From Vicinamibacterales bacterium (GTDB lineage Bacteria > Acidobacteriota > Vicinamibacteria > Vicinamibacterales > UBA8438), in the NCBI GenBank assembly GCA_965207675.1, contig CBDBMY010000008.1:344291-408290 (forward strand): a DNA stretch of 64,000 bases, given 5' to 3'. The notes under the pieces are model-generated. The model was not told the DNA's origin and searched no databases. It saw nothing but the letters and a program-made list of their open reading frames with translations. The position numbers and the translations under genes were made by a program. How positions within the stretch are numbered: position 1 is the first letter of the stretch; every line of letters starts with the position of its first letter. Of the stretch, positions 3,802-25,810 are shown piece by piece.

Positions 3802-3888
3802 GCCCGTTTCATGACGGAACCGTCCGGCCGGCGATCCCAGCGCCTTCGCCGCGGACGGGCGCTGCCCGGACCGCCGCCGCTCGGCCCG

Positions 3889-3933: not shown

Positions 3934-3935
3934 GC

Positions 3936-5398: not shown

Positions 5399-5551
5399 AC
5401 TGCGCTCCCTTCGCCGGGCGCTCGATCCCCGCATCGAGGTCGGCGGACCGCCGAATCGATGCGGCAGGACGGCTGGATGCGGTTGCCGCGGCGGCGTGAG
5501 CCGTCCGGAACGAGGGAATGCCGACCTCGCAGTTCCGATGGAGGTGCAGAT

Positions 5552-6489: not shown

Positions 6490-7275
6490 ATGGTGCGGGC
6501 CGACCAAAGGTCAAGGGAGATGACGAAAGAGCAAGGACAATCGGAAGCTCATTCGACCGGACTGAGGACACCGGCCACGACACCGGCCATGCCTTCCGGC
6601 GGCGCCGACACCGAGGCCGATGCGCCCGGCAGGGTCGTCGCGGCGGTGAACGCTAGCACTGACCGCATCCTCCGAGCCTTCGACGAGAAAATCAGGTACG
6701 ACACGACCAAACAGCAGGCAATCGACCGTCAGCACGCCGAACTCGTGGACCACCGCCGCGATCTGGTTGCTCAAGCCGCCGCCCCGTTCGTCTTCGGCAT
6801 GATTCACCACCACGCAGAGATCGAAAAGCTTATCGTGGCGGTGCGCGAGGAATCCGCACCGCCCTCGCCGCCCGGCCGGCCGCGCCCGCTGGCGCGGATT
6901 CTGCCGTGTCTGACCCGCGCGTGGAATCGGTGGACCATGCCCCGGCCCCGTGGCACGAACCCAAGCGGCGGCGATGTTCCGCCCGTCCGAGCCGAAATGC
7001 CCGCGGCCAAGGTCTGCGAGTTGTTGTCGAGTCTGCAGGAGGACATCGAGCACGTGCTGGGCGAGAACGGCGTCGCCGCGTACCGCCCCGAAGTCAGCCA
7101 ACCGTTCGATCCGGAACGTCACCGGGTCGTAGGCAAGACGCGGCCAACCGACGACGAAGCCCGTTCCGGCACCATCGCTGCCTGCCGGGGGCCCGGGTTC
7201 GAGCGTGGAGGACGGATTCTCGTAAAGGCACCCGTGTCGGCCTATCGGTACGAACGGACGTCGCCGGATTCCTAA
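6490..7275 (+). CDS. GrpE-like nucleotide exchange factor (divergent)
   Basis: The C-terminus (..VLGENGVAAYRPEVSQPFDPERHRVVGKTRPTDDEARSGTIAACRGPGFERGGRILVKAPVSAYRY) fits the GrpE beta-domain pattern (G-V..I..G..FDP..H.A....G.I....GY...R.LR.A.V.V). The N-terminal part is helical (FDEKIRYDTTKQQAIDRQHAELV). There is an unusual Pro-rich insert. The gene sits immediately upstream of an Hsp70 gene. An alternative start is at 6520. Confidence 0.65.
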   Translation: MVRADQRSREMTKEQGQSEAHSTGLRTPATTPAMPSGGADTEADAPGRVVAAVNASTDRILRAFDEKIRYDTTKQQAIDRQHAELVDHRRDLVAQAAAPFVFGMIHHHAEIEKLIVAVREESAPPSPPGRPRPLARILPCLTRAWNRWTMPRPRGTNPSGGDVPPVRAEMPAAKVCELLSSLQEDIEHVLGENGVAAYRPEVSQPFDPERHRVVGKTRPTDDEARSGTIAACRGPGFERGGRILVKAPVSAYRYERTSPDS

Positions 7276-7343
7276 AGGCTCCGATCCGACACCTGCGGCC
7301 AACACGGTCCACCGACCGGCAGTCATCGAAAGGACGTCACGAC

Positions 7344-9032
7344 ATGGCCACGGCCGACAAGAGCAACCCCGTCTTCGGCATCGACCTCGGGACCACGTAC
7401 TCGTGCATAGCGTACGTCAACGACGCTGGCAAGACCGAGGTCATCCCCAACTCAGACGGCGACCTCACCACGCCTTCCGTCGTCTACTTCGAGGATGCCC
7501 GGAACGTCGTCGTGGGCCAAACCGCCAAGGACGCGCTGCCGACGAATCCCGAGCGAGTGATCTCCCTGGTCAAGAGACGGATGGGAGACAAGGACGCGAA
7601 GTTCGAGGGCGTGACCGACGCGCCGCTGACGCCGCACGAGATATCGGCGCACGTTCTCCGGAGGCTCGTCCAAGACGCGCAGGACTACACACGTCGGGAG
7701 GACCCGATCACAGACGTTGTCATCACCTGCCCCGCCTACTTCGGATTCGCAGAGAAGGAGGCAACCCGCCAGGCTGGGGAAATCGCCGGCCTGAACGTGC
7801 GCCACGTCATCCCGGAACCGACCGCCGCGGCCATCTCCTACGGCATGATCGACGCGTCCCGCGACGAGACGGTGCTCGTGTATGACCTCGGAGGGGGCAC
7901 CTTCGACGTGACCGTTATCGACGTAAAGAAGGGCGACATCGAGGTCGTTTGTGTGGACGGAGACCACGATCTCGGCGGTGCCAACTGGGATGAGGACGTC
8001 GCAACGTGGTTTGCCGAGAAGTTCTCCAAGGAGCACCATACACCGACCACCAAGCTGATGAGCGACGCCGAAGCTTGGCAGGAATTGCTCGCATTGGCAG
8101 AAAAGGCCAAGAAATCCCTGACGGCCAGGAACAAATATACCGCGAGAATAACCCACGGCACCAAGCGATCGCAGGTCGAGCTCACCCGGGAAGAATTCGA
8201 CCACATCACCGGCGGCCAGCTTGAAACCACCATCATGGCGACGAAGAACGTCCTCAAGCATGCGCGGGAGAAGGGCCGCAGCAAGTTGGACAAAATACTA
8301 TTGGTCGGCGGGTCGACGTATATGCCTCAGGTCATGGAGCGCCTGAAGCGGGAGTTTCCCGAGGTTCCCGACATCGGCCTGCTCGACCCGAACCAAGCGG
8401 TGGCCAAGGGTGCCGCGGTGTTCGGCTACAAGTGCTATCTCGACGACGCGGTCGCGCGCAAGGTCTCGGAGCAGACGGGCGTTGAGGCTCCGGCGGTCGA
8501 GGATCTGTCCGATGCGGTGCGCGAACGCGCGGAGGCGAGCGTCGCGGCCGAAGAAGGGCTGCAACTTGCCCGAATGCAGAGCTTGACACGCAAGGAGATC
8601 CAAAACGTGACATCCAAGAGTTTCGGCACCAAGGTCTTCGACAGCGATACGGGCACAAGCTACGTCCACAACCTGATCGTGGCGGACGACAAGGTGCCGA
8701 CGGAGGTGACCGAGGGCTTCTTTACCGTGGAGGAAAACCAGACCGGGGTCGACGTGGTGTGTCTGGAGAACATTCTGCGTCAATCGGGGCGGGTCGATGT
8801 CGATGCATGTACCGAGATCGGGAAAGCGGAGCTGAAGTTCGCCAGACCTCTCCCCGCGCAGTCCCCGGTGCAGATTCGCTATGCGCTGTCCGCCGATGGG
8901 CTTCTCTCCGTGCACGGGAAGGACCCGACCACCGGAGGTGAAGTTCAGATGGAGATCGCAACCGCAGCGATCCTGAGCGCCGGCGAGGTTGAGGAAAAGA
9001 GACGCCGGAGCGGGGCGATGAAGGTGAGCTGA
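7344..9032 (+). CDS. Hsp70-family ATPase lacking the helical lid (non-canonical DnaK paralog)
   Basis: GIDLGTTYSCIAY, DLGGGTFDV, LLVGGSTYMPQV and DPNQAVAKGAA are the Hsp70 ATPase motifs. A beta-sandwich substrate-binding domain is present (..NLIVADDKVPTEVTEGFFTVEENQTGVDVVCLEN..PAQSPVQIRYALSADGLLSVHGKDPTTGGE). The protein ends ~25 aa after it, with no lid and no EEVD. GAAAGGA lies upstream of the ATG. Confidence 0.95.
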   Translation: MATADKSNPVFGIDLGTTYSCIAYVNDAGKTEVIPNSDGDLTTPSVVYFEDARNVVVGQTAKDALPTNPERVISLVKRRMGDKDAKFEGVTDAPLTPHEISAHVLRRLVQDAQDYTRREDPITDVVITCPAYFGFAEKEATRQAGEIAGLNVRHVIPEPTAAAISYGMIDASRDETVLVYDLGGGTFDVTVIDVKKGDIEVVCVDGDHDLGGANWDEDVATWFAEKFSKEHHTPTTKLMSDAEAWQELLALAEKAKKSLTARNKYTARITHGTKRSQVELTREEFDHITGGQLETTIMATKNVLKHAREKGRSKLDKILLVGGSTYMPQVMERLKREFPEVPDIGLLDPNQAVAKGAAVFGYKCYLDDAVARKVSEQTGVEAPAVEDLSDAVRERAEASVAAEEGLQLARMQSLTRKEIQNVTSKSFGTKVFDSDTGTSYVHNLIVADDKVPTEVTEGFFTVEENQTGVDVVCLENILRQSGRVDVDACTEIGKAELKFARPLPAQSPVQIRYALSADGLLSVHGKDPTTGGEVQMEIATAAILSAGEVEEKRRRSGAMKVS

Positions 9033-9093
9033 TGTTCGAAGGGGCGGCGCCAGTTGCGCCGGCCGTGGAGAACCGGCGCTGAAGGTGCAATTG

Positions 9094-10065
9094 ATGGTGG
9101 CGCAGAAGCTGCGGATGCTGCTTGAGACGCTGGAGTGCCCGGACGTCTACCTATTCCTCGGCGTAGATCGGAGCGCCCCGCTGGAAGAGCTGCAGGCGGC
9201 CGCTGAGAAGAAGTACGTCAGTACACATAACCAGAGCTCGCGAAACGCGGTGACCCGGGCCGCTGGCGAATTGGCGGGGCTGTGCAAGTCGGACATCTTC
9301 AGGAACGCGCGGACCAAGGCGGCGTACGACCGGGAGCTGGACCGGCAGGACCCGCAGCGGCAGGCCGCCGCGGCGCAGCAGCGGCAGCAAGCTTGGGCGC
9401 GAGTCACCGGTGCCGTCGCCGCCGCTGCGGACCGGGTGGTCAGGTACTCCGGGCGCGTCTCCGCCGGGGGAGCCGCGCTGATAGTCGCGGGGACGGTTCT
9501 GGGCACAGGTTTCGATGCGCCTTCGGGCGTATCGATACACAGGCTGGGAGTGCTGGCCTTTCCGTGCGGTTTCACGGCATTCCTCTACCGGGGACCCCGG
9601 CACCACACCGCCGTTGTCGCGGCCGGGGGATTCCTTGCGGTCGTGCTCGGAATCGTTGCGCGAGCCATTCATTCTTCCTTGACCGCGCAAGATGTGGCCG
9701 GCGGCGATGGGTCTCTGATGGAACTGCTCGGTCTGCTGAGACTGGTGGGCGGATTGGCTCTTCTGAGCGCGTTGGCGTCGTTCGTGTTCAGGGAGTCCTG
9801 GCACATCAGGGTCGGCGCCGCGGCGAAACCCTTTATGGAGTGGTGGCTTGCGACGATAGCCATTACCGGGAATCCGCTGATCATGGCCGGCGTCACGGGA
9901 ATGGCGTTTGCGCTGACCTTCGGTCTGACGGCCGGAGTCGTCATGACCTTTCTCTTCGGGGGCGGCGCGGACGAAAGGGTCCGAGCGGCGACCAGCGCGA
10001 CCGCATACGTTTCCGGCTTCCTCATCGTTGCAGGCGTTCTCCGGCGGCTCTTTTCGCGTCGCTGA
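9094..10065 (+). CDS. Polytopic membrane protein with N-terminal HPD-less J-like domain (paralog 1)
   Basis: DVYLFLGVDRSAPLEELQAAAEKKYVSTHNQSSRN..AGLCKSDIFRNARTKAAYDRELD follows the J-domain helix II / loop / helix III layout, with HNQ where HPD is expected. About six hydrophobic helices follow. Confidence 0.8.
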   Translation: MVAQKLRMLLETLECPDVYLFLGVDRSAPLEELQAAAEKKYVSTHNQSSRNAVTRAAGELAGLCKSDIFRNARTKAAYDRELDRQDPQRQAAAAQQRQQAWARVTGAVAAAADRVVRYSGRVSAGGAALIVAGTVLGTGFDAPSGVSIHRLGVLAFPCGFTAFLYRGPRHHTAVVAAGGFLAVVLGIVARAIHSSLTAQDVAGGDGSLMELLGLLRLVGGLALLSALASFVFRESWHIRVGAAAKPFMEWWLATIAITGNPLIMAGVTGMAFALTFGLTAGVVMTFLFGGGADERVRAATSATAYVSGFLIVAGVLRRLFSRR

Positions 10066-10216
10066 GGGGTCGGCTGGCGCATGAGGTCGCGGCGGACCCG
10101 AGGCCGGGACCGAGAGCGGTCCCGCTCGGCGTGAAGACCGAGATGACAACGAGGCAACCACCGGCGGGCGGAGCGTGGTCACGGGCGGAGTGCTGTCGGG
10201 ACGAGGAGTATGAGTG

Positions 10217-11383
10217 ATGGTGCCGCCAAAGGTATGGACACTGCTCGAGGCCGTGGGATGCGAAGACATCTACGGGTTCCTGGGCATGGAACGCGACGCT
10301 CCCTTGGAAGAGCTGCGGGCCGCAGCCGAGAGAAAATACGAAGCGATACACAACCAGAGTGCGAGAAGCGAAGGTGCGAGAGTCGGTGCGGCCCTGGCCG
10401 GATTGTGCAAGTCGACTATATTCAGGGATGCGGAGACGAGGAGCGGGTACGACGACGAGGCGGCGCTGCGGGGCGAAAGGCGTGCGGACCCTGCAGGTCA
10501 GCAGCTTGTCACGGCGGAGGAACGACAAAGGGCGGCAGCGGCGGCCGCGAGCGCGGCGGCTGCGGGCGTGGCGAGTGCGGTGGCCGAGGGGGCGAGAAGC
10601 GCGACCGCGAGCGCCGTGCGGTACGTCGAGGAGTACTGCAGAGGCATTTCGGCTACGGGGGCGGTTTTGGTCGCCGTGGGAGCGGCTCTGGCGGCGGGAG
10701 TCAGCGCACCGGCGGGCGCGATCGTCCTCGGCCTGGGAACGGCGATCTTTCCGTGCGGGTTCGCGGCGGTTATGTATAGGCGGTCCCGGGACTGGATAGT
10801 GCGCGTCGGCGGGGCCGGGCTTGTACTGGTCACGCTGGGCATCATGGGCGAGGGCTATTCAGCCGCAGCGATTGCGGAAGGTAGGGCGAATCCGGTGGTC
10901 TTGGCCCTGGTGGGCGGCTCGAGGCTGTTGGGCGGACTGGTCCTCGTCGCGGGCTTGGCGTCGTTCGGGCTGAAGGAAGCTTGGCACGTGAAGGCCGCCG
11001 ACACGACGGGCCCCGCCGTGGAGTGGTGGCAAGCGAGGATCGGCGCGGGGAACCCGGCGATCGTGCTGGGCGCCGCGGGGTTGGCGTTTGCGGCCGCGAT
11101 GGCGATCGCCGTCCGCCCCGTCGTGAGTATCGTTTTCGGCTCCGGGGGCGCGGGATTGGTGGAGTCCGTGGTGTCGGCGGCGGCCTCTTACTCTGCTTTA
11201 CTCCTTGGTGGAGGCGTCGCGTGGCGGTTGGCCAAGCGCTACGGGGGGGTAACGGAGCGTGGTGGGGACACTCTCCAATGCGGGAGGTGCGGAACGCGGT
11301 CGGCTCGCAGCAAGTGTCGGGATGGCGACGGCTTCAGAGTTACGTATCGCTGTGCCGTCTGTGGGGCCCGCATGGAGGGGTAG
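10217..11383 (+). CDS. Polytopic membrane protein with HPD-less J-like domain and C-terminal zinc ribbon (paralog 2)
   Basis: The J-like domain is DIYGFLGMERDAPLEELRAAAERKYEAIHNQSARS..AGLCKSTIFRDAETRSGYDDE. The membrane region is paralogous to that of the previous gene. The C-terminus reads CGRCG..CAVCG. A GGAG RBS is present. Confidence 0.8.
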   Translation: MVPPKVWTLLEAVGCEDIYGFLGMERDAPLEELRAAAERKYEAIHNQSARSEGARVGAALAGLCKSTIFRDAETRSGYDDEAALRGERRADPAGQQLVTAEERQRAAAAAASAAAAGVASAVAEGARSATASAVRYVEEYCRGISATGAVLVAVGAALAAGVSAPAGAIVLGLGTAIFPCGFAAVMYRRSRDWIVRVGGAGLVLVTLGIMGEGYSAAAIAEGRANPVVLALVGGSRLLGGLVLVAGLASFGLKEAWHVKAADTTGPAVEWWQARIGAGNPAIVLGAAGLAFAAAMAIAVRPVVSIVFGSGGAGLVESVVSAAASYSALLLGGGVAWRLAKRYGGVTERGGDTLQCGRCGTRSARSKCRDGDGFRVTYRCAVCGARMEG

Positions 11384-11609
11384 ACGACACGTGGGTGCCG
11401 TTAGATTCGGTCTGGGTGGGGCCCATTCGGGTAGAGAACTCAGTTATGGTGCTTCTGGCCGCGGTGGCTTATCGACCGGGGGCAATGACGACGCGGGGCC
11501 CGCTACTCGGCAGCGGTTTGGCGCGTCGGCCGGATGACGGGATGCAGGGGATCTGTGGAGATCACGGAGAAGGGACTCGGTCGGAGAAAGGCGCAAGAGG
11601 GTACTAACT

Positions 11610-13367
11610 ATGGTGCCGTCAAAGGTTTGCCAGCTGCTCGAAAAGGTTGGATGCGACGACGTATACGAGTTCTTGGCATGCGAGCGGAGCGCGCCGCTGG
11701 AAGAGCTGCGTGAGGCCGCGGACGCCAAGTATAGGCAGATACACAACCAGAGCTCGTCAACGGACGCGCAGAAGGCCGCGAGAGACCTGGCGGGGCTGTG
11801 CAAGGCCGCGATATTCATGGACGCGGCGAGCAAGAGGGCATATGACGAGGAAACCGACACGCGGCGGAAGCCCGAGGGAGGCGTGGTCTCCGCGGTCGTG
11901 GCAGCGGTGGTCGTGGTCGCGGTTGTGGTCGGCGCCGCGTGGATGGTTTGGCAGGGCGCCGTTTGGGTTGTCGACCGCGTAGAGGGCTGGGTGTCTCGGC
12001 CGGTGGAAGAGGGACCCGTGGAACCTCCAGCGCCTCTGCCCCATGATCCTCCCGACCCGGAACCGGAAGCGGAACCGGAAGATGGACCGCAGGCCGAGGA
12101 GCGACGGCTCGGTCTCGATAGGGCTGCCCGAACACGAGTGCAGGTCGCGTTGTCGGAGGGGGATTACGATCCCGGTGAGGCCGACGGGTTGTTGGGCGAG
12201 CGCAGCAGGAATGCCCTCCGGGCTTGGCAGCGGGACCGCGATCTTGAGGTAACGGGGTATCTGACCCGCGAGACCGCGGAGCGGTTGGGCGCCTTCGATC
12301 TGGACCCGGATATTGGGACGGCGGAAATTGATGCGGGTACGTTGACTATCCGAGGGGATCCGTTGAGTTCGATTTCAGTCGATGGGGCGTTCGTCGGCAG
12401 CGTGCCGGAGGAGTCAGGGGTCGTGGTCGTTCGGGAAGTCGAGCCAGGGAGTCATTTCGTCGTTGCGCGGCGTGAAGGGTACAGGACGGTGGAGAGGGTC
12501 GTGGATGTCGTCCACGGTCGGGCAGAGGTCGTGGACGCAACCCGCGGGGGGATGTCGGGGCTGCTGGCAGTGTCGGCGGACGTGGCCGGGGCGTTGCTTC
12601 GCATCAACGACGGTGAAGAGCGGGCCCTTCCAGTGACGGATCTCGAGATCGCGCCCGGCTCGCACGATCTGGCGGTAAGCCGCGAAGGGTACAGGCCGGT
12701 CAAGGACCGCATCGACGTTCGTCCGGGTCAGCTCGTCAGCCGGAACGTCATCCTCGAGGCGATCCCGCATGAGGAGCGCGTCATGGATGCTCTTGACCCC
12801 GCGCTGGCGCACTTCCGGGCGGGGGACTATCGGGCGGTCGTCGACGCGGTGCGGTCTGTCCTCGATGTCGTCGGGAATTCCGTGCTTGCGTACTGGTTGC
12901 TCGGGGTTGGTCTTTACGAGCTCGGGGAGTTCGTAGAGAGCGTGCAGCCGTTGACCATGGCCATCGGTCTCGGTGCCGAAGTGGTACTGCCCGCCAAGCA
13001 TCGCCACGGAGGGGGAGGCTTCCGGGAGGGATTCTGTACCGGCACACTCACGTTGAGCCTCGACGAGATTGCGTTCGTCTCGGTCGACGATCCGGGTCAC
13101 GGTTTTGCCGTGGCTCCGGACAAGATGACGGAGCCCACCGTCGCGCAGTCCGTCGGCGGCTTCCCGTACCGTTTGAACACCGGCGTGCGAGACCTTGAGC
13201 GCGGCATAGAGCGGAACAATTTCGACTTCGTCCACTGGAAAGCTGAGCCTCAGGCCGCGGACCCCGATTCTCTGCGGCTGGTCGTTCTCGGGTGTCCGGA
13301 CTGTGACGCGTCGATGTTCGTTCAGCATGCCCTCATGACCACCGTGATCCGCGGTGCGAGCCAGTGA
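11610..13367 (+). CDS. Single-pass protein: HPD-less J-like domain, TM, PG-binding, 2x PEGA, TPR-like, C-terminal beta domain (paralog 3)
   Basis: The J-like domain is DVYEFLACERSAPLEELREAADAKYRQIHNQSSST..AGLCKAAIFMDAASKRAYDEE and the TM segment is VVSAVVAAVVVVAVVVGAAWMVW. DGLLGERSRNALRAWQRDRDLEVTGYLTRET resembles PG_binding_1. GSHFVVARREGYRTVERVVDV and GSHDLAVSREGYRPVKDRIDV resemble PEGA domains. Confidence 0.85.
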   Translation: MVPSKVCQLLEKVGCDDVYEFLACERSAPLEELREAADAKYRQIHNQSSSTDAQKAARDLAGLCKAAIFMDAASKRAYDEETDTRRKPEGGVVSAVVAAVVVVAVVVGAAWMVWQGAVWVVDRVEGWVSRPVEEGPVEPPAPLPHDPPDPEPEAEPEDGPQAEERRLGLDRAARTRVQVALSEGDYDPGEADGLLGERSRNALRAWQRDRDLEVTGYLTRETAERLGAFDLDPDIGTAEIDAGTLTIRGDPLSSISVDGAFVGSVPEESGVVVVREVEPGSHFVVARREGYRTVERVVDVVHGRAEVVDATRGGMSGLLAVSADVAGALLRINDGEERALPVTDLEIAPGSHDLAVSREGYRPVKDRIDVRPGQLVSRNVILEAIPHEERVMDALDPALAHFRAGDYRAVVDAVRSVLDVVGNSVLAYWLLGVGLYELGEFVESVQPLTMAIGLGAEVVLPAKHRHGGGGFREGFCTGTLTLSLDEIAFVSVDDPGHGFAVAPDKMTEPTVAQSVGGFPYRLNTGVRDLERGIERNNFDFVHWKAEPQAADPDSLRLVVLGCPDCDASMFVQHALMTTVIRGASQ

Positions 13368-14364: not shown

Positions 14365-14900
14365 TTTGCGCCTCCTCAAGGAAGCCGTACTGGCTGAGCA
14401 TGCGGAGCCACCGCGGCGCATTGCGCCCGACAACCAAGCGTTGGTAGTCGATGCCGGGGTCGGTGTAGGGCCGGTCGTCGCGGAGGACGGCGGGAAGCAC
14501 CCGCAACAGCTTGTGGGCGGTTGCGAGAATGGCGCGCTTGTAGCCGCGGCGGCCGGCGAGGGCCCGAAGGCTCCGGCCGCTACGTCGCCAACGGCGTGAC
14601 CGCGTCGGGCGTCGAGATGCGCCGGTTCGCGCCGTTCGGCGGCGCTATCGCAGACCGCGTGCAGATCGGTTCGGCGCCGGGGTCGCGAGCGTCGCCGGGC
14701 TGCGGATCGGGTGGATGCGGAAACGGGCAGGGTGGTCGACTCGGCCTCCGCCCGGACGGTCCTGGCCCTGCGGGGAATCGACAAGCTGGGCATCGATGGC
14801 CTCGTGCCGCTCGGCCGGTTGGAGTTCGCCGTCGCGGCGATACCGGTCTGGGGGCTGAAGGTGAAGGCGAAGGGCGGCTGAACTTCCGGGACCATGACGA
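14365..14900 (-). pseudogene. IS110-family transposase remnant
   Basis: ..RRGYKRAILATAHKLLRVLPAVLRDDRPYTDPGIDYQRLVVGRNAPRWLRMLSQYGF parallels the IS110-type C-terminus at 31447-31839. The upstream part is frameshifted and degraded. Confidence 0.45.
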
Positions 14901-15125
14901 ATTCGGCGACGTCATCGGTCCCGCGTGCTCGGCAGACTTGGACGACTACGTGTCGGCCCTCACGGGGCGGGCATCCTGATGTCGGCGGACGATGTCTCGT
15001 CGTTGGAGCGACCATCTGGCGTCATCCGTCCCACGCGCTCGGCCGTCCCTGGACGACTTCACGTCGGCCTTCGGCGCGACCCGCATCGTGATGACCGCCA
15101 GCGACACCCTGCCGCTGGAGCGACC

Positions 15126-15936
15126 ATGACCGACTCCCCGACATCCGCCGTCCCGCCCGTTTGGCGGATCGGCTTGTGCGTGGCCGCCGCGATGCTCGTC
15201 GGCGCCGTCGCCCACGGGTAGCCGGCCACTCCGGCGTTGGAGGTCCTGTCGCCGGACGGCGCCCGGTACCTGTCGGGCCGCGAACGGCTGGCGGTCCGGC
15301 TGACCCCCGCCGGCGCGACGGCGCGCGTCGAGTTCTTCATCGACGGCCAACGCGTCTGTCTGCGCGAACGGCTCCCGTGCGAGTGCGACTGGGACGCCGG
15401 CGCCGACGGCCAGGCGCGCGTCGTACGCATCCTGGCCACCCTCGCCGACGGGCGCCGGCTGGTCCGTCGCGTCCACACCCCGGCGCGCGCCGGCATGACG
15501 TTCAGGAGCGCCGTGAACGTCGTGCTGGTGCCGGCCGTCGTGACCGACCGGCGCGGGGCGGTACGTGACCGAGTTGCGCGAGGACGGCGAGCCGCGACGA
15601 GTCAGCTACTTCTCGCCGCCCTCGGCCAGGGGGCTGGACCTGGTCATCGCGCTGGACGTCAGGACGCTGGGTCGCCGCTCGGAAGTGCGCGAGGTGCGCG
15701 ACGTCGTGACGCGGCTGGCCGGCGTCAGCGGCGGCCAGGGGTTCCCGGTCGACCGGCTCGACCGGCAGGAGCGGGCGCTGGGGAGCTTCGCCGACGACCT
15801 GCGCCACCAGTACCTGCTCGGCTTCACGCCGCCGCTGGCCGAAGGCGCCGTCGGCGCCTTTCGATGGCTCGCGGTCGATGTGCGCGGCGGCAGTTTCCGG
15901 GTGCGCGCACGCGAGGGCTACCGGTCGTCCCCGTAA
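15126..15936 (+). pseudogene. Remnant of a VWFA-related Acidobacterial-domain (TIGR03436-like) protein
   Basis: MTDSPTSAVPPVWRIGLCVAAAMLVGAVAHG is followed by an in-frame TAG at 15219-15221, then ..LEVLSPDGARYLSG..FRSAVNVVLVPAVVTDRRG. After a frame change it reads ..LREDGEPRRVSYFS.., and the tail is ..DLRHQYLLGFTPP..VDVRGGSFRVRAREGYR. The central VWA part is largely missing. Confidence 0.5.
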
Positions 15937-16009
15937 CGCCGTCGGCCCCTGACTCCCGCCAACCGGGTTCGGGCATTGCGCGCGGCGCCGTCGGCGGGCG
16001 ACCGTGACG

Positions 16010-16040
16010 GTCGGCGCCCGGGCATCGCCCGGGCGCCGAC
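16010..16040. terminator. Perfect 14-bp-stem GC hairpin between convergent genes (putative bidirectional terminator)
   Basis: GTCGGCGCCCGGGC-ATC-GCCCGGGCGCCGAC lies 48 nt downstream of the lon stop (minus strand) and 74 nt downstream of the VWFA remnant (plus strand). There is no clear U-tract. Confidence 0.45.
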
Positions 16041-16088
16041 CCTTGCGCTCGTCGGTCGGCCATGACATTCCGTGGCCGTTGCCGCCGG

Positions 16089-19000
16089 TCAGGCCGGTTG
16101 CGCCGTCGGCGGCGCCAGCGCCCGCGCCAGCATTTCGTCGATCGTGGACACGAAGCGCACGTCGATCCCCCGCAGCAGGTCTTCGCCGAGCTTCTCGTCG
16201 ACCTCACTCGCGTTCGCGGTCGGCAGGATCACCCCGGCGAGTCCGCAGCGGCGGGCGGCCAGCACCTTCTCCTTGACGCCGCCGACCCCGAGCACGTCCC
16301 CCGAGAGGGTGATCTCGCCGGTCATGGCGAGGTCGCGGCGCACGGCACGCCCGGTGAGGGTGGAGACCAGCGCGGCGACCATCGCCACGCCCGCCGACGG
16401 TCCGTCCTTCGGGATGCTGCCGGCCGGCACGTGCAGGTGCACCTCGGCGGCCTCGTAGAACCCGGGGGCGACGCCGTAGCGGGTGGCGTTGGCGCGCACC
16501 CACGACAGCGCCGCGTGCGCCGACTCCTTCATCACGTCACCCAACTGTCCGGTGAGGGTCAGCGCACCGCCGCCGGGCATCCGGCTGGCTTCGACGAACA
16601 GCACGTCGCCGCCGGCGGGGGTCCACGACAGCCCCATCGCCACGCCGGGGCGCTTCATGCGCCCCGACGGCGCTTCGTCGGCGTGCGGTGGCCGGCCCAG
16701 CATGTCGGCGACCGCCGGCTCCGTGATCTCGACCGGCGACTCGTCTCCCCCGGCCCGCCGCAGCGCCACCTTGCGGCAGACCGCGCCGATGCGGCGGCCG
16801 AGTTCGCGCACGCCCGCCTCGCGCGTGTAGCCGCGAATCAGGGCGTGCAGCGCCCCGTCGGTGAAGCGGACCCCCTCGGCCGCGAGGCCGTTCTCGTCGA
16901 GCTGCCGGCCGACCAGATGCGCCCGGGCGATCTCGAGCTTCTCGTCCTCCGAGTAGCCCGGCAGCTCGATCTTCTCCAGGCGGTCGCGGAGCGGAGCCGC
17001 TATCCGGCTCCACTCGTTCGCGGTGGCGACGAAGAACGTCTCCGACAGGTCGAACGGCACCTCCACGTAGTTGTCGACGAACTTCTTGTTCTGTTCCGGG
17101 TCGAGCACCTCGAGCAGCGCCGACTCGGGGTCGCCCCCGCTGTTCGAGACCCGCGAGATCTTGTCGACCTCGTCCAGCAGCAGCACCGGGTTCTTCGAGC
17201 CGATTCTGACGAGCTCGCGCACGAGCCGGCCCGGCTGCGCGGCGCGCCACGTGCGGTTGTGTCCGCGCAGCTCCGTCCCGTCGCTCATTCCGGCGAAGGA
17301 CATCTTGGCGAACTTCCTGCCCATGGCGTCCGCGATGCCCTGCGCAAGCGACGTCTTGCCGACCCCGGGGGGGCCGACGAGGCAGAGAACCGTCCTCGGG
17401 CTGCCGCCGAGTTTCCGCACCGCCAGATCCTCCAGCAGCCGCGCCTTCGCCTTGGCGAGCCCCCAGTGCCCCTCGTCCAGCAGCTCGCGGGCGCGCCGCT
17501 GGTCGATGGGTTCCTCGCGGCGGGCGTTCCACGGCAGGCCGGTGAGGCACTGGAGATAGGTGAACCGGTCGCCGTAGTCGGCGTCGCCCGGCGACCTCGA
17601 CAGCATCAACTGCAGCTCGCGCTTGGCGTGCCGTCGCGCCGCGTCCGGCAGGCCGCCGCGGTCGATCGCCGCCCGGATCCCCTCGACGCCGGGCAGGACT
17701 TCGCCGCCGCCCTTCCCCGCGCCGAGCACCTCCCGGACCGTGTCCGCCGTCACCGCGGTCGTCTCCGCGGCGCCGCCGCTCGACGCCTCCAGTCGGAGCG
17801 CCGTCCGCCGGCAGATCGCCGAGACGCCGCGGTCGAGGTCCCGCACGCCCATTTCGTTCGCGTGGTCGCGGATCATCCCCCGCAGCGCCTCGTCTTCGAA
17901 CGCGATCAGCCCGCCCGTCAGTCCGTGGTCGCGGATGCGCGCCGGCACGAGGATCCGCTTGGCGATCTCGAACTTCTCCTCCACCGTGTAGCCGGCGATC
18001 TCGATCGCCTCCACGCGGTCCCGCAGCACCGCGGGAATATCGCCGAGCACGTTCGCGGTGGCGATGAAGAAGACCTCCGACAGGTCGAACGGCAGGTCCA
18101 CGTAGAGATCGTGGAATGCGGCGTTCCGGGTCGGATCGAGCGCGTCGAGCAGCGCCATGCCCGGCGCCCAGCCCACCTTGTCGATCTCGTCGAGGAGGAA
18201 CACGGGATTCCTCGCGCCGATTCTCTGCAACTGCCGGATGATCGCCCCGGGGTGCGACGCGGCATAGTCGCGTCGGGCGCCCCGGACGTCGGCGACCTCC
18301 GTCAAGCCGTTGCACGACATCTCGGCGAATCTGCGGCCGAGGGCCCGGGCGACGCCCGCCGCCAGCGAGGTCTTGCCCACGCCCGGCGGCCCGACGAAGC
18401 AGAGAATCTGTCCCCGCGCGTCACCCTTACGACGGCGCACGGCCAGGTGTTCGAGGATGCGATTTTTCGCGTCCCGGAGTCCGACATGCCGTTCGTTCAG
18501 GACGCTCCGGGCGCGCTCGACATCGATCGTCTCCGGCCCGCCGCCGCGCCACGGCAGGTCGGCCAGCACGAGGAAGTACTCCCTGACTTTCTCGGCTGTG
18601 TCCGCCGACAGCTTGTCGAGCTCGGGCCTCAACCGGTTCAGCACCTCCCGGGGCATGCCGCACGCCTCGATCCTGCCGCGGAGTCTCTTGGTCGGGTCCT
18701 CCAACTGCGCCTGGACGTCGTCAAGCCTGGTCTTCAGAAGCCGGCCGCCGAGGGAGTCGTCCCGTCGGCGTTCCGATGCCTGCCGCCAGTGCTCCTCCCT
18801 CGCCTTCAGGCCGCGTTCGTAGGTCTTCTCCGGGCCCGCCCCCTCGAGCGCGTCGACCATGAACGCGTTCAGCGCGCGCACGCGTTCGCCCGGATTGAGG
18901 ATGTCGAGCCACCGCTGCTGGAGCGGGACCGGAACGTCGAGGTCGGCGATGCGCCTGATCAGGCTGACCGCGATGAAGTCCGCGGCCACGTCGATGGGGA

Positions 19001-19595
19001 GGGCGGGCGCCTGCCACGACTTCGCGGACGCGCTGTCGCGCGACGGTGAAGCCGAGCCGTCGCGGTCGCGCCCCCGCCCGAGCTCGATCGCCTCGAGGAC
19101 ATCCAGCAGATCGGCCGCCGCAACGGCGTCGGTGCCCGGAGACCGTTCGAGCAGCTTCACGAAGTTGTCCCGGACCCCCTGGTAGTCGGCGCAGCGGCCG
19201 AAGACCGGGTACGCGGGGTTGGGGCCCGGCGAGGCGCCGCCCTGATCGCCGACCGCGCGCGCGAGGAGCCGCAGCGTCACGAGGGACGGCTCCGGGAAGC
19301 CGGCTGCTGTGCCGAGCGTGCAGACCCTGCCGGGGACGCCGGAGTCCCCGTGCGGCGGCGGGTCGAACCGGCAACGGAACTTGAAGACCCTCGACCCGGG
19401 CAGGTCAGGACTCGACCGGCCGCCTGCCTGCTCGACGAGCCGCGCGAGCGGGTCCGTCGGGGTCACGGCCAGCGTGACCGACTCGCCCGGGAACAGGACC
19501 ATGCCGGGAAGATCGAGCGTCGGGAGCCTCGACACGTCGGGCAGCCCGCGGAACGGTCGAGGGTCGAACGAAGAACGGCTAATCGTGATTGGCAT
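16089..19595 (-). CDS. lon: Lon protease with tandemly duplicated AAA+ module (N domain, AAA+ 1, AAA+ 2, S-K protease)
   Basis: The N domain begins LPTLDLPGMVLFPGESVTLAV. Walker A GPPGVGKTSLA occurs twice (encoded at ~18369-18395 and ~17354-17385). Walker B is LLDEIDK in one copy and LLDEVDK in the other. The Ser box PKDGPSAG and Lys box GGVKEKVLAA are present. I set the start at ATG 19595 (GGAGAG 8 nt upstream); the track ORF extends to 19742. Confidence 0.9.
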   Translation of the reverse strand: MPITISRSSFDPRPFRGLPDVSRLPTLDLPGMVLFPGESVTLAVTPTDPLARLVEQAGGRSSPDLPGSRVFKFRCRFDPPPHGDSGVPGRVCTLGTAAGFPEPSLVTLRLLARAVGDQGGASPGPNPAYPVFGRCADYQGVRDNFVKLLERSPGTDAVAAADLLDVLEAIELGRGRDRDGSASPSRDSASAKSWQAPALPIDVAADFIAVSLIRRIADLDVPVPLQQRWLDILNPGERVRALNAFMVDALEGAGPEKTYERGLKAREEHWRQASERRRDDSLGGRLLKTRLDDVQAQLEDPTKRLRGRIEACGMPREVLNRLRPELDKLSADTAEKVREYFLVLADLPWRGGGPETIDVERARSVLNERHVGLRDAKNRILEHLAVRRRKGDARGQILCFVGPPGVGKTSLAAGVARALGRRFAEMSCNGLTEVADVRGARRDYAASHPGAIIRQLQRIGARNPVFLLDEIDKVGWAPGMALLDALDPTRNAAFHDLYVDLPFDLSEVFFIATANVLGDIPAVLRDRVEAIEIAGYTVEEKFEIAKRILVPARIRDHGLTGGLIAFEDEALRGMIRDHANEMGVRDLDRGVSAICRRTALRLEASSGGAAETTAVTADTVREVLGAGKGGGEVLPGVEGIRAAIDRGGLPDAARRHAKRELQLMLSRSPGDADYGDRFTYLQCLTGLPWNARREEPIDQRRARELLDEGHWGLAKAKARLLEDLAVRKLGGSPRTVLCLVGPPGVGKTSLAQGIADAMGRKFAKMSFAGMSDGTELRGHNRTWRAAQPGRLVRELVRIGSKNPVLLLDEVDKISRVSNSGGDPESALLEVLDPEQNKKFVDNYVEVPFDLSETFFVATANEWSRIAAPLRDRLEKIELPGYSEDEKLEIARAHLVGRQLDENGLAAEGVRFTDGALHALIRGYTREAGVRELGRRIGAVCRKVALRRAGGDESPVEITEPAVADMLGRPPHADEAPSGRMKRPGVAMGLSWTPAGGDVLFVEASRMPGGGALTLTGQLGDVMKESAHAALSWVRANATRYGVAPGFYEAAEVHLHVPAGSIPKDGPSAGVAMVAALVSTLTGRAVRRDLAMTGEITLSGDVLGVGGVKEKVLAARRCGLAGVILPTANASEVDEKLGEDLLRGIDVRFVSTIDEMLARALAPPTAQPA

Positions 19596-19805
19596 TTCGA
19601 TAACTCTCCAGCGGTTCTCGAACCGCTCGGACATTCGATGAAAGGGCCAGCCGGCGCGCTCCGAGCCTCGCGGATGGACGCAGAGCGCACGGAACAACCG
19701 GGCTGCGCGCGAGCCGCCCTCCGCCACGTTGGGCGTTGGCAAAGATCGCCAGCAAGGGCAACCGAACGACTTCCCCGGATTCAGGAATTCGGACGTGTTC
19801 GTCCG

Positions 19806-20265
19806 TCAGGTGCGGCGCTCGCTTCTAGCGGCCCGCCGGGATGCGTGGCATCCCCAAGTCGCCGGTCGCCCTCTGGCGGGGCCGGCTTCGGACCTTGGGT
19901 CCGATCAGGTGCGGGCTCGCTCTTCTAGCGGCCCGCCGGGATGCGTGGCATCCCAAGTCGCCGGTCGCCCTCTGGCGGGGCCGGCTCGGACCTTGGGTCC
20001 GATCAGGTGCGGGGCTCGCTCTTCTAGCGGCCCGCCGGGATGCGTGGCATCCCAAGTCGCCGGTCGCCCTCTGGCGGGGCCGGCTCGGACCTTGGGTCCG
20101 ATCAGGTGCGGGGCTCGCTCTTCTAGCTAGCGGCCCGCCGGGATGCGTGGCATCCCAAGTCGCCGGTCGCCCTCTGGCGGGGCCGGCTTCGGACCTTCGG
20201 TCCGATCAGGTGCGGGGCTCGCTTCTAGCGGCCCGCCGGGATACGTGATATCCCCAAGTCGCCGG
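19806..20265. repeat. Tandem array, ~4.6 copies of a 99-104-bp hairpin-rich unit
   Basis: Unit starts are at 19806, 19905, 20004, 20103 and 20207. The unit is TCAGGTGCGGGGCTCGCTCTTCTAGCGGCCCGCCGGGATGCGTGGCATCCCAAGTCGCCGGTCGCCCTCTGGCGGGGCCGGCTCGGACCTTGGGTCCGA, with three hairpins (GGGATGC-GTG-GCATCCC; GCCGG..CCGGC; CGGACC-TTG-GGTCCG). Confidence 0.9.
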
Positions 20266-20532
20266 GTGCTTCCGAAGCGCTCGGGCGCGTCTTGAGCGTG
20301 GCACACGACGATGCTGCGACGCTACCATGCACATCCGCCCCCTGTCAAAAACGAATCGACCTCGACGAAGCCGGAGCCCGGATCCGTACGGCGAGGGTCG
20401 CCCGCTCAAGCGCCGGCAGCATCCGGTCAAGCCCTACGCGGGGAATCAAGTGGAAACCTGATGGCCCCATCCCCTTCGCAGTGCCACGGACAAACGGCCC
20501 GCGCAACGACGCGGCGCTGCCGAAAGTCGGCG

Positions 20533-20960
20533 TCAATCCGTAGAAGCCGCCCAAGCGATCCGGTCGATCGTCGTCGCACCAGCGCGCGTCCGCCCGCCGA
20601 CGAGCGCTCTGGCGAGCGGCAGGACCTGGGTGCGGATGTCGAGCGGCCGGTAGCCGGTCTGCTCGACGCTCATGTTGATCCACGGGCTGGCCCCGAACGG
20701 CCAGAGTCGTGGTGGTGGCCGTGCACGTTGACGCACCCGTCGGGCACGGAGACGAGCGGCACACTTGCGTGACGATGAGTGGAGGATCGGTGTGGAGGAC
20801 CAACGTCATCACCGAGGCGTCGGCGCCCATCCGACGCGCCTGCCAACGGTACCGAGTGAAGTTGTGGTTGCCGAGGATGACGATCTTCCTACCGGGGAGG
20901 TTCGCGGAGGGAGGCGTCCAGCGACCGAAGAATGCCGCAGCGGCCGCCGAGATCATGGAA
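20533..20960 (-). pseudogene. Decayed third metallophosphoesterase paralog (MPE3)
   Basis: GRKIVILGNHNF, PPLIVT / HASVPLVSVPDGCVNVHGHHH and WINMSVEQTGYRPLDIRTQVLPLARALV are found in three different minus-strand frames. The N-terminal motifs are not recoverable. Confidence 0.5.
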
Positions 20961-23388: not shown

Positions 23389-23606
23389 GGGTCCTCCTGG
23401 GTGGTGGTGGCGGCGTAGTAGTCGGCGCCGCGGATGCTATGCCGATATCGGCATAGCATCCGTAATGCCGACATCCCGGTTATGCCGCGTGGGCCGCCGA
23501 CCGCCGTGACCCCGCGGCCTTCCTGCAAAGCGATGTCGGCATAATCGGGTTGCCCTTGGCTTGACCGTCATTCCATTCTTCCACCTTGAGAGGAGGGCAA
23601 CGGCCC

Positions 23607-24848
23607 ATGGAACTGCACGCCCACGATGTCGCCGCTCCCACGAACGCTCGTGACCCGCTCCAGCAATGCCGTGATGGATTTCTGGAAAGCCTTGCCGTAC
23701 AAGGCTACTCACCCGCAACAATCGACGTTTATGGCCGCCTCGTGCTGGCCCAGTGTTCCGAGCTGGCAGCCCGAGGTCTTGAGATTGGGAGCCAGGAAGC
23801 CGCCGCTGCCGCCACCTTGGGTGAATTGGCGCCAAAGGCTTCAGCTGCAAGGACGCGCGCACTGTGGGGCAGTGTCGCGAGACGATTCGTCAGATACCTC
23901 TGCGAGCTCGGGATTCTCGACCGGTCCGTACGTAAGGCTGTACCAGAATCGGACGACCTGAGACGTCTCCGTGTAGCGTACGAGAATTGGCTTCGCCATC
24001 AGCGCGGCCTGAGCAACGAAACGGTCAAGAATAACTTGCAGACATTCAACGCCTTCATGCGTTTCCGATTCACGGACGAGGCGATTCAACCCGACCGCAT
24101 AACGCCGGCGGACCTGGTTGCATTTCTTGTGCCCGAGCGCACCCATCGCCAGATCTTTCCCGACCGCACCAAGGCATCGAGGCTGCGCAATCTCCTGCGC
24201 TTTCTGCACTCAAGCGGCAGGGTTCCCAACGCTCTTGTCGAGACCGTATCGCGCACTGCGCGCCACCGCCTGACAACTCCACGCGTGCATCTGGAGCCCG
24301 CCCAGGTTCGGCGCGTGCTCGATGCTGTTCGAGGCGATTCGACTCTCGCTCGCCGCAACTACGCGATCCTGCTGCTGACCGCCCGACTCGGGCTTCGTGC
24401 GCAGGAGGTGGTCGCCATCCGCCTTGAAGATATTCGTTGGCGCGCCGGCGAGCTTCTGATTCGGGGCAAGGGCAATCGTCACGACCCGATGCCCCTCCCG
24501 GTTGACGTCGGTGAAGCGCTGGTCGACTACATCCGTTACGGTAGAAAGGGAACCTGTCGCCACTTGTTCGTCACGGCCCGCGCCCCGTGGCGCCCGTTCG
24601 AGTCTGGCGCTATTGTCGCTCGCGTGCTCGGCGATGCATTGACGGCGGCCGGGCTCAGAGGTCCGCGGCATCGTCGTGGCGTCCATCTGCTCCGTCATTC
24701 CTTGGCAACGACGATGCTACGCCAGGGAGCGTCCTTCGACGAGATCGGCGATGTACTGCGCCATCGGCGTCGTGCGACGACGCTCGTCTACGCCCGCTAT
24801 GACTTGGATGCACTGCGCTCGATTGCACCAGCGTGGCCCGTACCGTAA
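23607..24848 (+). CDS. Tyrosine recombinase, RIT subunit A-like
   Basis: ARLGLRAQEVVAIRLEDIRW..LIRGKGNRHDPMPLP, VHLLRHSLATTML and RATTLVYARY provide the R..HxxR..Y catalytic set. GAGGAGGG lies upstream of ATG 23607. Confidence 0.85.
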   Translation: MELHAHDVAAPTNARDPLQQCRDGFLESLAVQGYSPATIDVYGRLVLAQCSELAARGLEIGSQEAAAAATLGELAPKASAARTRALWGSVARRFVRYLCELGILDRSVRKAVPESDDLRRLRVAYENWLRHQRGLSNETVKNNLQTFNAFMRFRFTDEAIQPDRITPADLVAFLVPERTHRQIFPDRTKASRLRNLLRFLHSSGRVPNALVETVSRTARHRLTTPRVHLEPAQVRRVLDAVRGDSTLARRNYAILLLTARLGLRAQEVVAIRLEDIRWRAGELLIRGKGNRHDPMPLPVDVGEALVDYIRYGRKGTCRHLFVTARAPWRPFESGAIVARVLGDALTAAGLRGPRHRRGVHLLRHSLATTMLRQGASFDEIGDVLRHRRRATTLVYARYDLDALRSIAPAWPVP

Positions 24849-24859
24849 GGAGACCTGCC

Positions 24860-25810
24860 ATGACCACCTTGAGCGATCGACTCGTAGAGTACCTCGACCA
24901 CCGTCGCTGCTTCGGATACCGCGGCATGGGAACCACGGCGGCAATATTGCGCCGCTTTGTAGCCTTTGCTGGCGGCGTCGGTGCGGAGTCAATCAGCACA
25001 GAGTTGTTCCTGGAATGGCGGAAACAGTTCGAGGCGCCGAGCGATGTCACCTGGGGCTGCAACCTGAGTCACGTGCGTGGCTTCGCAAAATGGCTTCATT
25101 GCTTGGACCCACGTACCGAAATCCCATCGGCTGACCTGATCCGACGCGGCAATCGACGCCCGCGCCCCTACATCTACACGAAAGAAGAGCTCACTCGCAT
25201 CGTGGAGTATGCGGCGCAACTGCCCTCAGCACGCGGGTTGAACGCGTGGACCTTCTCGACCCTCTTCGGACTGATTGCCGTGACGGGGCTCCGGCTTGGG
25301 GAGGCACTGGGGCTCGATGAGACCGATGTGGACCTGGACGAGGGAATACTGACAATCACACGAACGAAGAATGGCGAGTTCCGGTTGCTCCCGATCGCGC
25401 TCTCCACCACAGAGCGCCTGGCCGCGTACCGCGCGGTGCGCGACCGGATACTTGGCAGCAGGGCCCAACCATTCTTCCGCACCGAGCAGGATGGGCGACC
25501 GAGCTCCAACTATGTCGAAGCGGTCTTCGCTCGGGTCGGAATGGCAGTCGGCGTTCGCGACGGATGTCCGTCCGGCAAACGGGGTCGTGGTCCGCGCATT
25601 CATGACCTCCGTCATACGATGGCGGTCCGCACCATCATTGGTTGGTACCGTGCCGGACTCGACCCCAACCGAGAAATGATCAAGCTCACGACGTATCTGG
25701 GCCACAAGCACCCATCTCACACCTACTGGTACATGGAAGCCGTGCCGGAACTAATGCGCCTTGCGTGCACACGCGCGGAACGAGTGGCGCACACGGGGGG
25801 TGCGTCATGA
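24860..25810 (+). CDS. Tyrosine recombinase, RIT subunit B-like
   Basis: Motifs are VTGLRLGEALGLDETDVDLDEGILTITRTKNGEFRLLPI, IHDLRHTMAVRTII and LGHKHPSHTYWYM. The gene starts 12 nt after the previous stop. Confidence 0.85.
   Translation: MTTLSDRLVEYLDHRRCFGYRGMGTTAAILRRFVAFAGGVGAESISTELFLEWRKQFEAPSDVTWGCNLSHVRGFAKWLHCLDPRTEIPSADLIRRGNRRPRPYIYTKEELTRIVEYAAQLPSARGLNAWTFSTLFGLIAVTGLRLGEALGLDETDVDLDEGILTITRTKNGEFRLLPIALSTTERLAAYRAVRDRILGSRAQPFFRTEQDGRPSSNYVEAVFARVGMAVGVRDGCPSGKRGRGPRIHDLRHTMAVRTIIGWYRAGLDPNREMIKLTTYLGHKHPSHTYWYMEAVPELMRLACTRAERVAHTGGAS

Follow-up and report, generated by a model that had tools for sequence, protein, structure and literature searches.

A gene on the minus strand of a 64,000-nucleotide stretch of contig CBDBMY010000008.1 from a Vicinamibacterales soil bacterium, here referred to as the window, was predicted to encode a Lon protease with two complete AAA+ modules in tandem. 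The order of the domains was a divergent LonA N-region, a first AAA+ module (here called D1), a Gly-rich linker, a second helical bundle, a second AAA+ module (D2) and an S16 Ser-Lys protease domain. Published classifications assign one AAA+ module to each Lon chain (PMC6722904, PMC9569914), and in all Lon subfamilies an ATPase domain with an AAA+ module is followed by the protease domain (PMC9569914). Judged from its sequence, we consider the window protein to be a new architectural variant of the LonA family.

The gene was contained in a single uninterrupted open reading frame (ORF) on the minus strand, which covers positions 16089-19742 if counted from the first TTG codon. The ATG codon at 19595 is the likely start and gives a protein of 1168 amino acids, since the N-termini of the closest homologs (group A, see below) coincide there and the ortholog in another metagenome-assembled genome (MAG), at the locus called L001, opens with the same MPITISRSSFDPRPF; the TTG at 19742 is an unlikely start. 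The GC content was 0.92 at the third codon positions (GC3) and 0.50 at the second (GC2), which fits the coding signature of a genome with about 70% GC. Gene calling based on GC3 was too strict for the compositionally patchy window and was not relied on. An exact-sequence look-up of the 1168-residue protein gave no match. The gene and its domains were delineated as follows, using profile alignments (HHalign) and an AlphaFold2 (AF2) monomer model in addition to motifs.

16089-19595, minus strand: complete coding sequence of the tandem-AAA+ LonA-type protease, 1168 aa plus stop (ORF, translation and motifs, homolog N-termini, Pfam, NCBIfam).
19191-19538, minus strand: beta-rich N domain, aa 20-135, divergent homolog of the LonA N (substrate-binding) domain (HHalign; AF2 strands).
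18696-19190, minus strand: helical region, aa 136-300, which aligns to the LonA helical or HI(CC) region (HHalign, AF2, homolog alignment).
18558-18695, minus strand: first pre-AAA helical bundle, aa 301-346 (HHalign to about 253-305 of canonical LonA; AF2 helices).
17991-18557, minus strand: D1 alpha/beta subdomain, aa 347-535, with Walker A at 402, Walker B at 466, sensor-1 N515 and Arg finger R527.
17718-17990, minus strand: D1 lid (helical subdomain), aa 536-626 (Lon_lid stretch), with sensor-2 Arg R585 in EMGVRDL.
17688-17717, minus strand: Gly-rich linker GKGGGEVLPG, aa 627-636, from the D1 lid to the second bundle (pLDDT below 50 at 627-635).
17538-17687, minus strand: second pre-AAA helical bundle, aa 637-686, a copy of the first bundle (AF2 helices at 637-686; Lon model alignments).
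16956-17537, minus strand: D2 alpha/beta subdomain, aa 687-880, with Walker A at 741, Walker B at 805, sensor-1 N860 and Arg finger R872.
16692-16955, minus strand: D2 lid, aa 881-968 (best Lon_lid stretch 901-951), with sensor-2 Arg R930 in EAGVREL.
16092-16673, minus strand: A-type S16 Lon protease domain, aa 975-1168 (Lon_C), with S1067 and K1110 invariant.

The Pfam models matched two stretches each for AAA (PF00004), AAA_5 and Lon_lid, and a single stretch for Lon_C (aa 957-1160, E = 1.1e-74). The NCBIfam equivalog for endopeptidase La (TIGR00763, "lon") scored 971 bits as the sum of two stretches against a cut-off of 608, and the E. coli-type Lon model NF008053 scored 760 bits, below its cut-off of 891. 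From residue 638, TIGR00763 and the E. coli-type model align at about model position 252-256, and the duplicated unit corresponds approximately to positions 252-585 of the E. coli-type model. The LPW motif was found at residues 347 and 687 and Walker A (GPPGVGKT) at residues 402 and 741, with a spacing of 339 residues. Walker B was FLLDEIDK in D1 and LLLDEVDK in D2, followed by FIATAN at residue 510 and LRDRVE at residue 524 in D1, and by FVATAN at residue 855 and LRDRLE at residue 869 in D2. Pore-loop-1 was DVRGARRDYAASHPG in D1, with the aromatic residue Y444, and ELRGHNRTWRAAQPG in D2, with W783; pore-loop-2 was full-length with GDPES in D2 and about 7 residues shorter than that of LonA in D1. 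The sequence of D2 and the protease domain was 41% to 46% identical to LonA proteins with solved structures. The AF2 model (pLDDT 70, pTM 0.39) was used for domain order and secondary structure only and not for the geometry between D1 and D2; an alignment of 19 to 50 sequences at 60% to 70% identity cannot fix the orientation of the modules in AF2.

The N-region was divergent. The Pfam model LON_substr_bdg (PF02190) was not detected in the window protein. A family profile of the first 346 residues matched canonical LonA N-regions in HHalign with a probability of 98.9% (E = 2e-17, 268 columns), and the match extended from the LPxLPL..V.FP start to the bundle preceding the AAA+ module. Since this match spans the N-region although PF02190 was undetected, the protein is best described, at the sequence level, as a LonA with a divergent N-region. 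The N domain opens with an LPxLxLPxxVLFP motif, and AF2 placed strands at residues 26 to 116 with low confidence. The helical region at residues 136-300 contained a variable acidic low-complexity insert as well as conserved motifs that included DVAADFIAVSLIRR and LQQxWL. An exhaustive profile search of 1.84 billion representative sequences indicated that this N-region is rare: 51 matches reached E <= 1e-3, and 16 of them also E <= 1e-30. Most were fragments, and none of the 51 was a strong match to canonical LonA. It was also the fastest-evolving part of the protein, with nonsynonymous to synonymous rate ratios (dN/dS) of 0.78 to 1.05 in three more distant comparisons.

The first-pass annotation had proposed that a unit of about 340 residues, consisting of the pre-AAA helical region and a full AAA+ module, occurs twice, that both copies keep Walker A, Walker B, sensor-1 and the Arg residues, and that the copies are too diverged for a recent assembly duplication. 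All of this was borne out: profile hidden Markov models recovered two bona fide AAA+ modules with lids and not one, every motif string that had been quoted was present, and the search for orthologs with the same layout, which had been suggested as a check, yielded a whole family. The copies were 48% identical in protein sequence over 292 residues (E = 2e-87) and 67% identical in DNA sequence, and the longest exact DNA match between them was 20 bp. The gene at L001, which is located on a chromosome assembled from long reads (CBDBMZ010000003.1), was collinear with the window gene over all 3507 bp at 97.4% identity, and that at L016, on a metagenome contig from JGI, at 97.8%, with no gaps in either alignment. 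The same layout was found in about 55 additional clusters at the 90% identity level, with proteins of 1160 to 1241 residues that were aligned at 97% to 100% coverage and 53% to 69% identity. These clusters came from other samples, several of them from contigs of 5 to 9 Mb, and the precomputed Pfam order in the homologs was identical (AAA, Lon_lid, AAA, Lon_lid, Lon_C).

These data leave practically no room for the explanation that the tandem layout is non-biological, caused either by an assembly duplication or by a frameshift or stop-loss fusion of adjacent lon genes, and we regard this explanation as refuted by the sequence comparisons. It could draw on the observations that many of the source genomes are long-read MAGs and that several members were truncated or without Lon_C (P0056, P0058, P0061), which suggests sequencing frameshifts in these assemblies. 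The two copies differ, however, by far more than a recent duplication or one made in assembly would allow, and the gap-free orthologs and the many clusters with the same layout from many samples speak against it as well. A fusion of two whole lon genes was ruled out, with no protease domain after the first copy and no N domain before the second. In a neighbor-joining tree of the isolated modules, D1, D2 and the modules of single-module LonA proteins each formed a separate clade, with mean identities of 51% between D1 and D2, 51% between D2 and LonA, and 46% between D1 and LonA. Because each class of modules was monophyletic, the duplication is an ancient internal one that predates the diversification of the two-module family.

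When compared with the sequence features that define LonA (MEROPS S16 subfamily A), the window protein was found to have an A-type protease domain, an extended N-region, an A-type AAA+ module (twice) and a match to TIGR00763, and it differed only in that it has more than one AAA+ module per polypeptide. An A-type protease of LonA has a Pro before the catalytic Ser, and its Ser and Lys are separated by 42 residues (PMC9569914). In the window protein, P1066 precedes S1067 in KDGPSAG, and K1110 in GGVKEK is located 43 positions downstream of S1067. The N-region, the AAA+ type and the protease type are shared with E. coli Lon, Meiothermus taiwanensis LonA, Yersinia pestis Lon and human LONP1, as is the pore-loop-1 context RGH(R/N)RT(Y/W). 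Unlike these proteins, the window protein has a complete extra module between the N-region and the canonical ATPase-protease core and an N domain too diverged for PF02190, and the genes of its family are present in several paralogous copies within variable islands, unlike a lone housekeeping lon gene.

The note on the sequence had also suggested that the protein is a two-tier Lon like ClpA or ClpB and stated that no double-ring Lon was known to its author. The latter agrees with our searches: no description of a tandem-AAA+ Lon was found in the searchable full-text literature, and the matches in the PDB by sequence and by fold (Foldseek) were single-module LonA chains only, of up to about 970 residues. 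The former was sustained as an analogy, with the rings deduced from topology and motifs, and not as a statement of kinship, since both modules are of the Lon type and copies of each other. As in Clp/Hsp100 proteins (ClpA, ClpC, ClpB/Hsp104), p97/Cdc48, NSF and Pex1/6, there are two AAA+ modules per chain, and from the topology of the linker the window protein would be expected to stack two hexameric rings around a common axial channel, as in these two-ring machines. The proposed output into a protease chamber is as in ClpA and ClpC. The D1 and D2 modules of Clp/Hsp100 proteins come from different AAA+ clades, whereas those of the window protein are close Lon-type paralogs (51% identity), and the protease is fused in cis instead of being a separate ClpP. 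Scores against the Clp models were low (29 bits for TIGR02639 ClpA with a cut-off of 993, and 27 for ClpK with a cut-off of 1900), and both modules clustered with Lon modules. Thus, the window protein is not a Clp/Hsp100 protein, though by analogy it probably works like a ClpA/ClpC-ClpP machine in one chain.

A Lon-type C-terminal domain joined to a P-loop or AAA+ region is also found in BrxL, the Lon-like protein of BREX, and in LonC, and BrxL is likewise encoded in defence islands, which resembles the context of the window gene. The BrxL model TIGR02653 scored 41 bits against a cut-off of 628. LonC is described as being without ATPase activity (PMC13069640), whereas both modules of the window protein keep all ATPase motifs.

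To what extent both modules are competent was assessed from motif conservation across 19 and then 50 full-length homologs. In all 50, and in both modules, the Walker A Lys (K408/K747), the Walker B residues (D469-E470/D808-E809), sensor-1 (N515/N860), the Arg finger (R527/R872) and sensor-2 (R585/R930) were invariant, as were S1067 and K1110 of the protease domain. The pore-loop-1 aromatic was also kept in all 50 sequences, as Y, W or F in D1 and as W783 in D2. The majority fraction, used as a measure of conservation, was 0.84 for D1 and 0.88 for D2. The region-wise dN/dS values were 0.27 to 0.57 for D1 and 0.39 to 0.42 for D2; absolute values are unreliable with a GC3 of 92%, which depresses dS, and only comparisons between regions were used. 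D1 and D2 are thus under similar constraint. For each of them, we predict ATP binding and hydrolysis and a grip on the substrate by an aromatic pore loop.

The matches to the two-module family in genomes were all in MAGs. Eleven of the 14 loci were labelled Vicinamibacterales (Acidobacteriota), and the remaining 3 were labelled Bryobacterales, Gammaproteobacteria and Pseudomonadales. The family is rare and restricted to one lineage. Within it we recognized 2 groups of paralogs, group A with proteins of 1160 to 1195 residues, to which the window gene belongs, and group B with proteins of 1217 to 1241 residues and an N-terminal extension. Both paralogs were present at L001/L009 and at L002/L004/L015. 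The L015 genes for group A and group B were convergent and located about 7 kb apart on one chromosome, and the pairs at L001/L009 and L002/L004 were located on single contigs, 13 to 26 kb apart according to the contig coordinates. The window contained a trace of the second paralog:

3934-4115, plus strand: 3' remnant of a group-B tandem-AAA+ Lon paralog, the last 60 or so codons (60% identity to aa 1113-1165 by tblastn); the paralog in relatives is oriented convergently to the main gene.

In comparison with L009, 65 bp of the window (3869-3934) stand in place of about 4.5 kb (6819-11368 in L009) that holds the group-B paralog, while the flanks of the remnant are conserved between the two (2061-3869 at 89.5% and 4965-6460 at 95.6% identity). 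The alignment points to a deletion of the rest of the group-B paralog in the window. It was also noted that some members lacked Lon_C or were of odd length (900 to 1640 residues), namely P0056, P0058, P0061, P0229, P0235, P0254, P0255, P0265 and P0274, and that P0255 in addition matched the Pfam models for N6_Mtase, Eco57I and MmeI-type methyltransferases. These members may reflect frameshifts in the gene calls from long-read MAGs, or they may be genuine fusions and truncations.

A further set of proteins of about 1375 to 1470 residues (P0059-P0068, P0072, P0190-P0261), comprising at least 70 clusters, contained three Lon-type AAA+ modules in front of the protease domain, here called T1, T2 and T3. 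The only name given to them by any source was "AAA family ATPase [Acidobacteria bacterium]". They resemble the window protein in having the same protease domain and Lon-type modules that are each preceded by a helical segment with LPW, and they come from the same lineage, the same chromosomes and similar mobile-element contexts. Unlike the window protein, they have an extra module and no LonA-like N-region, and the sequence identity to it was 42% to 50% over about 71% of the window protein. Some of the genes share contigs with two-module genes: P0258 is located on the 7,027,668-bp contig of L001/L009, and the 9,287,820-bp contig of the two-module P0027 carries P0204 and P0206. One was located between genes for mobility functions at L019:

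L019 10001-14215: three-module gene, between relaxase/RepB and integrase/transposase genes.

The middle module, T2, was the only fully canonical one in the three-module proteins. T1 had the Walker B sequence LE[AGS]ID and had lost sensor-1 and sensor-2, T3 had kept Walker A and B with the sensor-2 Arg replaced by Trp, and a 4-residue deletion has removed the pore-loop-1 aromatic from both. The overall identity pairs D2 with T2, the shared 7-residue deletion in pore-loop-2 pairs D1 with T2, and no clear pairing of T1-T3 with D1 or D2 emerged from the neighbor-joining tree. The degeneration of the outer modules makes the full set of motifs in D1 more meaningful.

We consider it fairly probable that the product of the window gene is a functional, ATP-dependent serine protease of the LonA type, whose duplicated unit gives rise to a homohexamer with two coaxial rings. 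The six D1 and six D2 modules would form these rings, head to tail, on top of a six-fold protease chamber, and a substrate recognized by the fast-evolving N-region would be threaded through D1 and then D2 to the Ser-Lys active sites. We infer the hexamer, the coaxial stacking and the sequential threading from the topology of the chain and the conservation of the motifs, and any cellular role is inferred as well. In full-length LonA structures such as 7fd4 and 7p6u, the chain passes from the C-terminal end of the lid to the protease ring, at the exit face, and the entry face carries the pre-AAA bundle. In the window protein, the D1 lid is connected to the D2 bundle by no more than about 10 Gly-rich residues, and the exit face of D1 would therefore be placed against the entry face of D2. 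Threading through D1 and then D2 would be the simplest interpretation because both modules carry complete ATPase and pore-loop-1 elements. Several observations weigh against this model. The pTM of 0.39 for the AF2 monomer makes it uninformative on the relative placement of D1 and D2. The absolute dN/dS values, unreliable as they are at a GC3 of 92%, were high for a housekeeping protease. The shorter pore-loop-2 of D1, without the GDP[ES] stretch, means that D1 may grip the substrate in a different way or more weakly. Furthermore, the three-module relatives, which keep one fully canonical module only, suggest that extra Lon modules can turn non-catalytic, so that conserved motifs are no proof of activity.

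The same loss of GDP[ES], which is kept in D2 and in canonical LonA, would fit an arrangement in which D1 is a structural or regulatory ring, where the nucleotide drives the assembly or gates access, and D2 alone translocates the substrate. The nucleotide bound by D1 of NSF or p97 serves largely for assembly or gating. The higher identity of D2 than of D1 to single-module LonA (51% vs. 46%) and the degeneration of the outer modules in the three-module paralogs, where Walker B is LE[AGS]ID, the sensor-2 Arg is lost and the pore-loop aromatic is deleted, would also be in line with such a division of labour. However, all catalytic residues of D1 are invariant and its pore-loop-1 aromatic is present in all 50 sequences, and the constraint on D1 is as strong as that on D2, and we therefore think it unlikely that D1 has a structural role only. 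It is even less likely that the modules are concatenated in a single planar ring without a second tier, similar to the concatenated modules of dynein-like AAA+ rings, so that three protomers (or two of the three-module paralogs) would provide six AAA+ modules. The numbers agree, as 2 modules in 3 protomers and 3 modules in 2 protomers both give six, which may be a coincidence, and the conserved Arg fingers would equally fit interfaces between D1 and D2 in a geometry that the monomer model leaves unfixed. The protease chamber and active sites of Lon are, however, built from six protease domains, as in hexameric LonA structures, and a trimer supplies three. A linker of about 10 residues from the D1 lid on the exit face to the D2 bundle on the entry face is also difficult to reconcile with a side-by-side placement, and each module has retained a separate pre-AAA bundle, which is also the arrangement in every LonA ring protomer. 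We thus favour the two coaxial rings with threading through both.

No conserved partner gene was identified in the neighbourhoods of the homolog loci, and the surroundings varied even between orthologs with 97% identity, as illustrated by the alignment to L001, which was limited to positions 14553-20609 of the window. The context included genes for an SNF2 helicase, a reverse transcriptase (RT), Uma2, a DNA methyltransferase, a PD-(D/E)XK ATPase and an S24 peptidase at L015, a type I-E CRISPR-Cas operon and a transposase at L017, a UvrD-like helicase at L018, and, next to the three-module gene at L019, a relaxase, a RepB primase, an integrase and transposases. Within the window itself were two genes for tyrosine recombinases and two for rve integrases, together with a Mutator transposase, an Hsp70-like gene, a group II intron and its RT, and a gene for a Metallophos/nucleotidyltransferase protein. 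Hence, the genes for multi-module Lon proteins are located in variable neighbourhoods rich in mobile elements or defence genes. Because the contexts are island-like, an accessory or conflict-related role is possible, as a hypothesis and not a finding. PADLOC gave generic partial matches only to the window Lon (DolB at 52 bits to the AAA segment and BrxL at 43 bits to the protease domain), and no full-length match to any of its defence-system protein models. No tRNA gene was found in the whole 64 kb, and hence no tRNA that marks an island boundary. The other features of the window were:

23586-25810, plus strand; 27365-28396, minus strand; 29321-30661, plus strand; 34375-36228, minus strand: mobile-element genes (recombinases, integrases, transposase).
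62886-63028, minus strand: group II intron D1-D4 (Rfam RF02003, 84.6 bits, E = 4e-17).
61705-62613, minus strand: ORF with a reverse-transcriptase domain (RVT_1, E = 1e-16), which adjoins the group II intron.
2122-3933, minus strand: protein of 603 aa with calcineurin-like phosphoesterase and nucleotidyltransferase domain matches.
52359-55694, minus strand: ORF of 1111 aa with a strong coding signal (GC3 0.87), and with a weak match to AAA_19 (UvrD-like helicase P-loop) only.

In the mobile-element stretch, a pair of neighbouring tyrosine recombinases was accompanied by an rve integrase that has a sigma-70 region-4 helix-turn-helix, by the Mutator-family transposase and by a second rve integrase. 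Near the intron, positions 61615-61971 matched a part of L015 at 91% identity, and this part overlaps the RVT_1 gene of L015. The 603-residue protein had weak PADLOC matches to the candidate defence family PDC-S09 (E = 5e-10), and its gene was conserved beside the position of the paralog in L009 with 89.5% DNA identity. The UvrD-like helicase near the Lon gene at L018 consisted of 1128 residues and was similar in size to the protein of the 1111-residue ORF. A block of lower GC content on the plus strand (6906-13367, GC 0.54-0.67), unmatched in the flanks fetched for L001 and L009, encoded an Hsp70-like ATPase of 708 residues with an N-terminal extension and a PEGA/peptidoglycan-binding protein at 11610-13367; its ORFs at 9085-10065 and 10214-11383 had no Pfam or PADLOC match. 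This block may represent an inserted cassette.

Upstream of the Lon gene, about 200 bp from the start codon, we noted a tandem repeat with a unit of 99 bp at 19801-20265 (4.7 copies, 93% matches). The core of the repeat, GGGATGCGTGGCATCCC, is a perfect hairpin, and the unit on the strand of the gene folds with a z-score of -3.3 (1 of 200 shuffled sequences was as good). The repeat was also present upstream of the orthologs at L001 (3 copies of the core) and L016 (at least 2 copies), with variable copy number, and none of the other 17 loci had it. Such a repeat could have a regulatory function 5' of the gene or be mobile.

A broader scenario, which we put forward tentatively and consider rather doubtful at present, is that the Vicinamibacterales have undergone a lineage-specific radiation of multi-tier Lon proteins, built as towers of two or three rings and with several per genome, that serve as conflict-related accessory proteases with rapidly evolving N-terminal sensors and not as housekeeping enzymes. 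Their role in conflicts would be directed against phages or mobile elements, or the genes would be carried by the elements themselves. We know of no precedent for a homomeric AAA+ protease with three rings.

Lon is the textbook example of a single-ring AAA+ protease, which reviews and classifications define by one ATPase module in each chain, and to our knowledge multi-tier designs have so far been restricted to unfoldases that are separate from the protease, such as ClpA/ClpC with ClpP and p97 with the 20S proteasome. The natural occurrence of a Lon with two fully equipped motors, together with its three-module sisters, would indicate that the design with a fused protease can be extended to a multi-tier machine. 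It would also allow the contribution of a second ring to be studied in a homologous background, be it more unfolding force, better grip or processivity, or gating, and the graded loss of motifs in the three-module paralogs would provide a natural series of rings, some active and some degenerate. The HI(CC) domain of LonA has been conjectured to be the relic of a lost first AAA+ module (PMC6722904). The protein described here bears on this conjecture, as its first module is located downstream of that region and a structural comparison of the two is possible. Finally, the island-like contexts of these genes raise the possibility that multi-module Lon proteases have a role in genetic conflicts.

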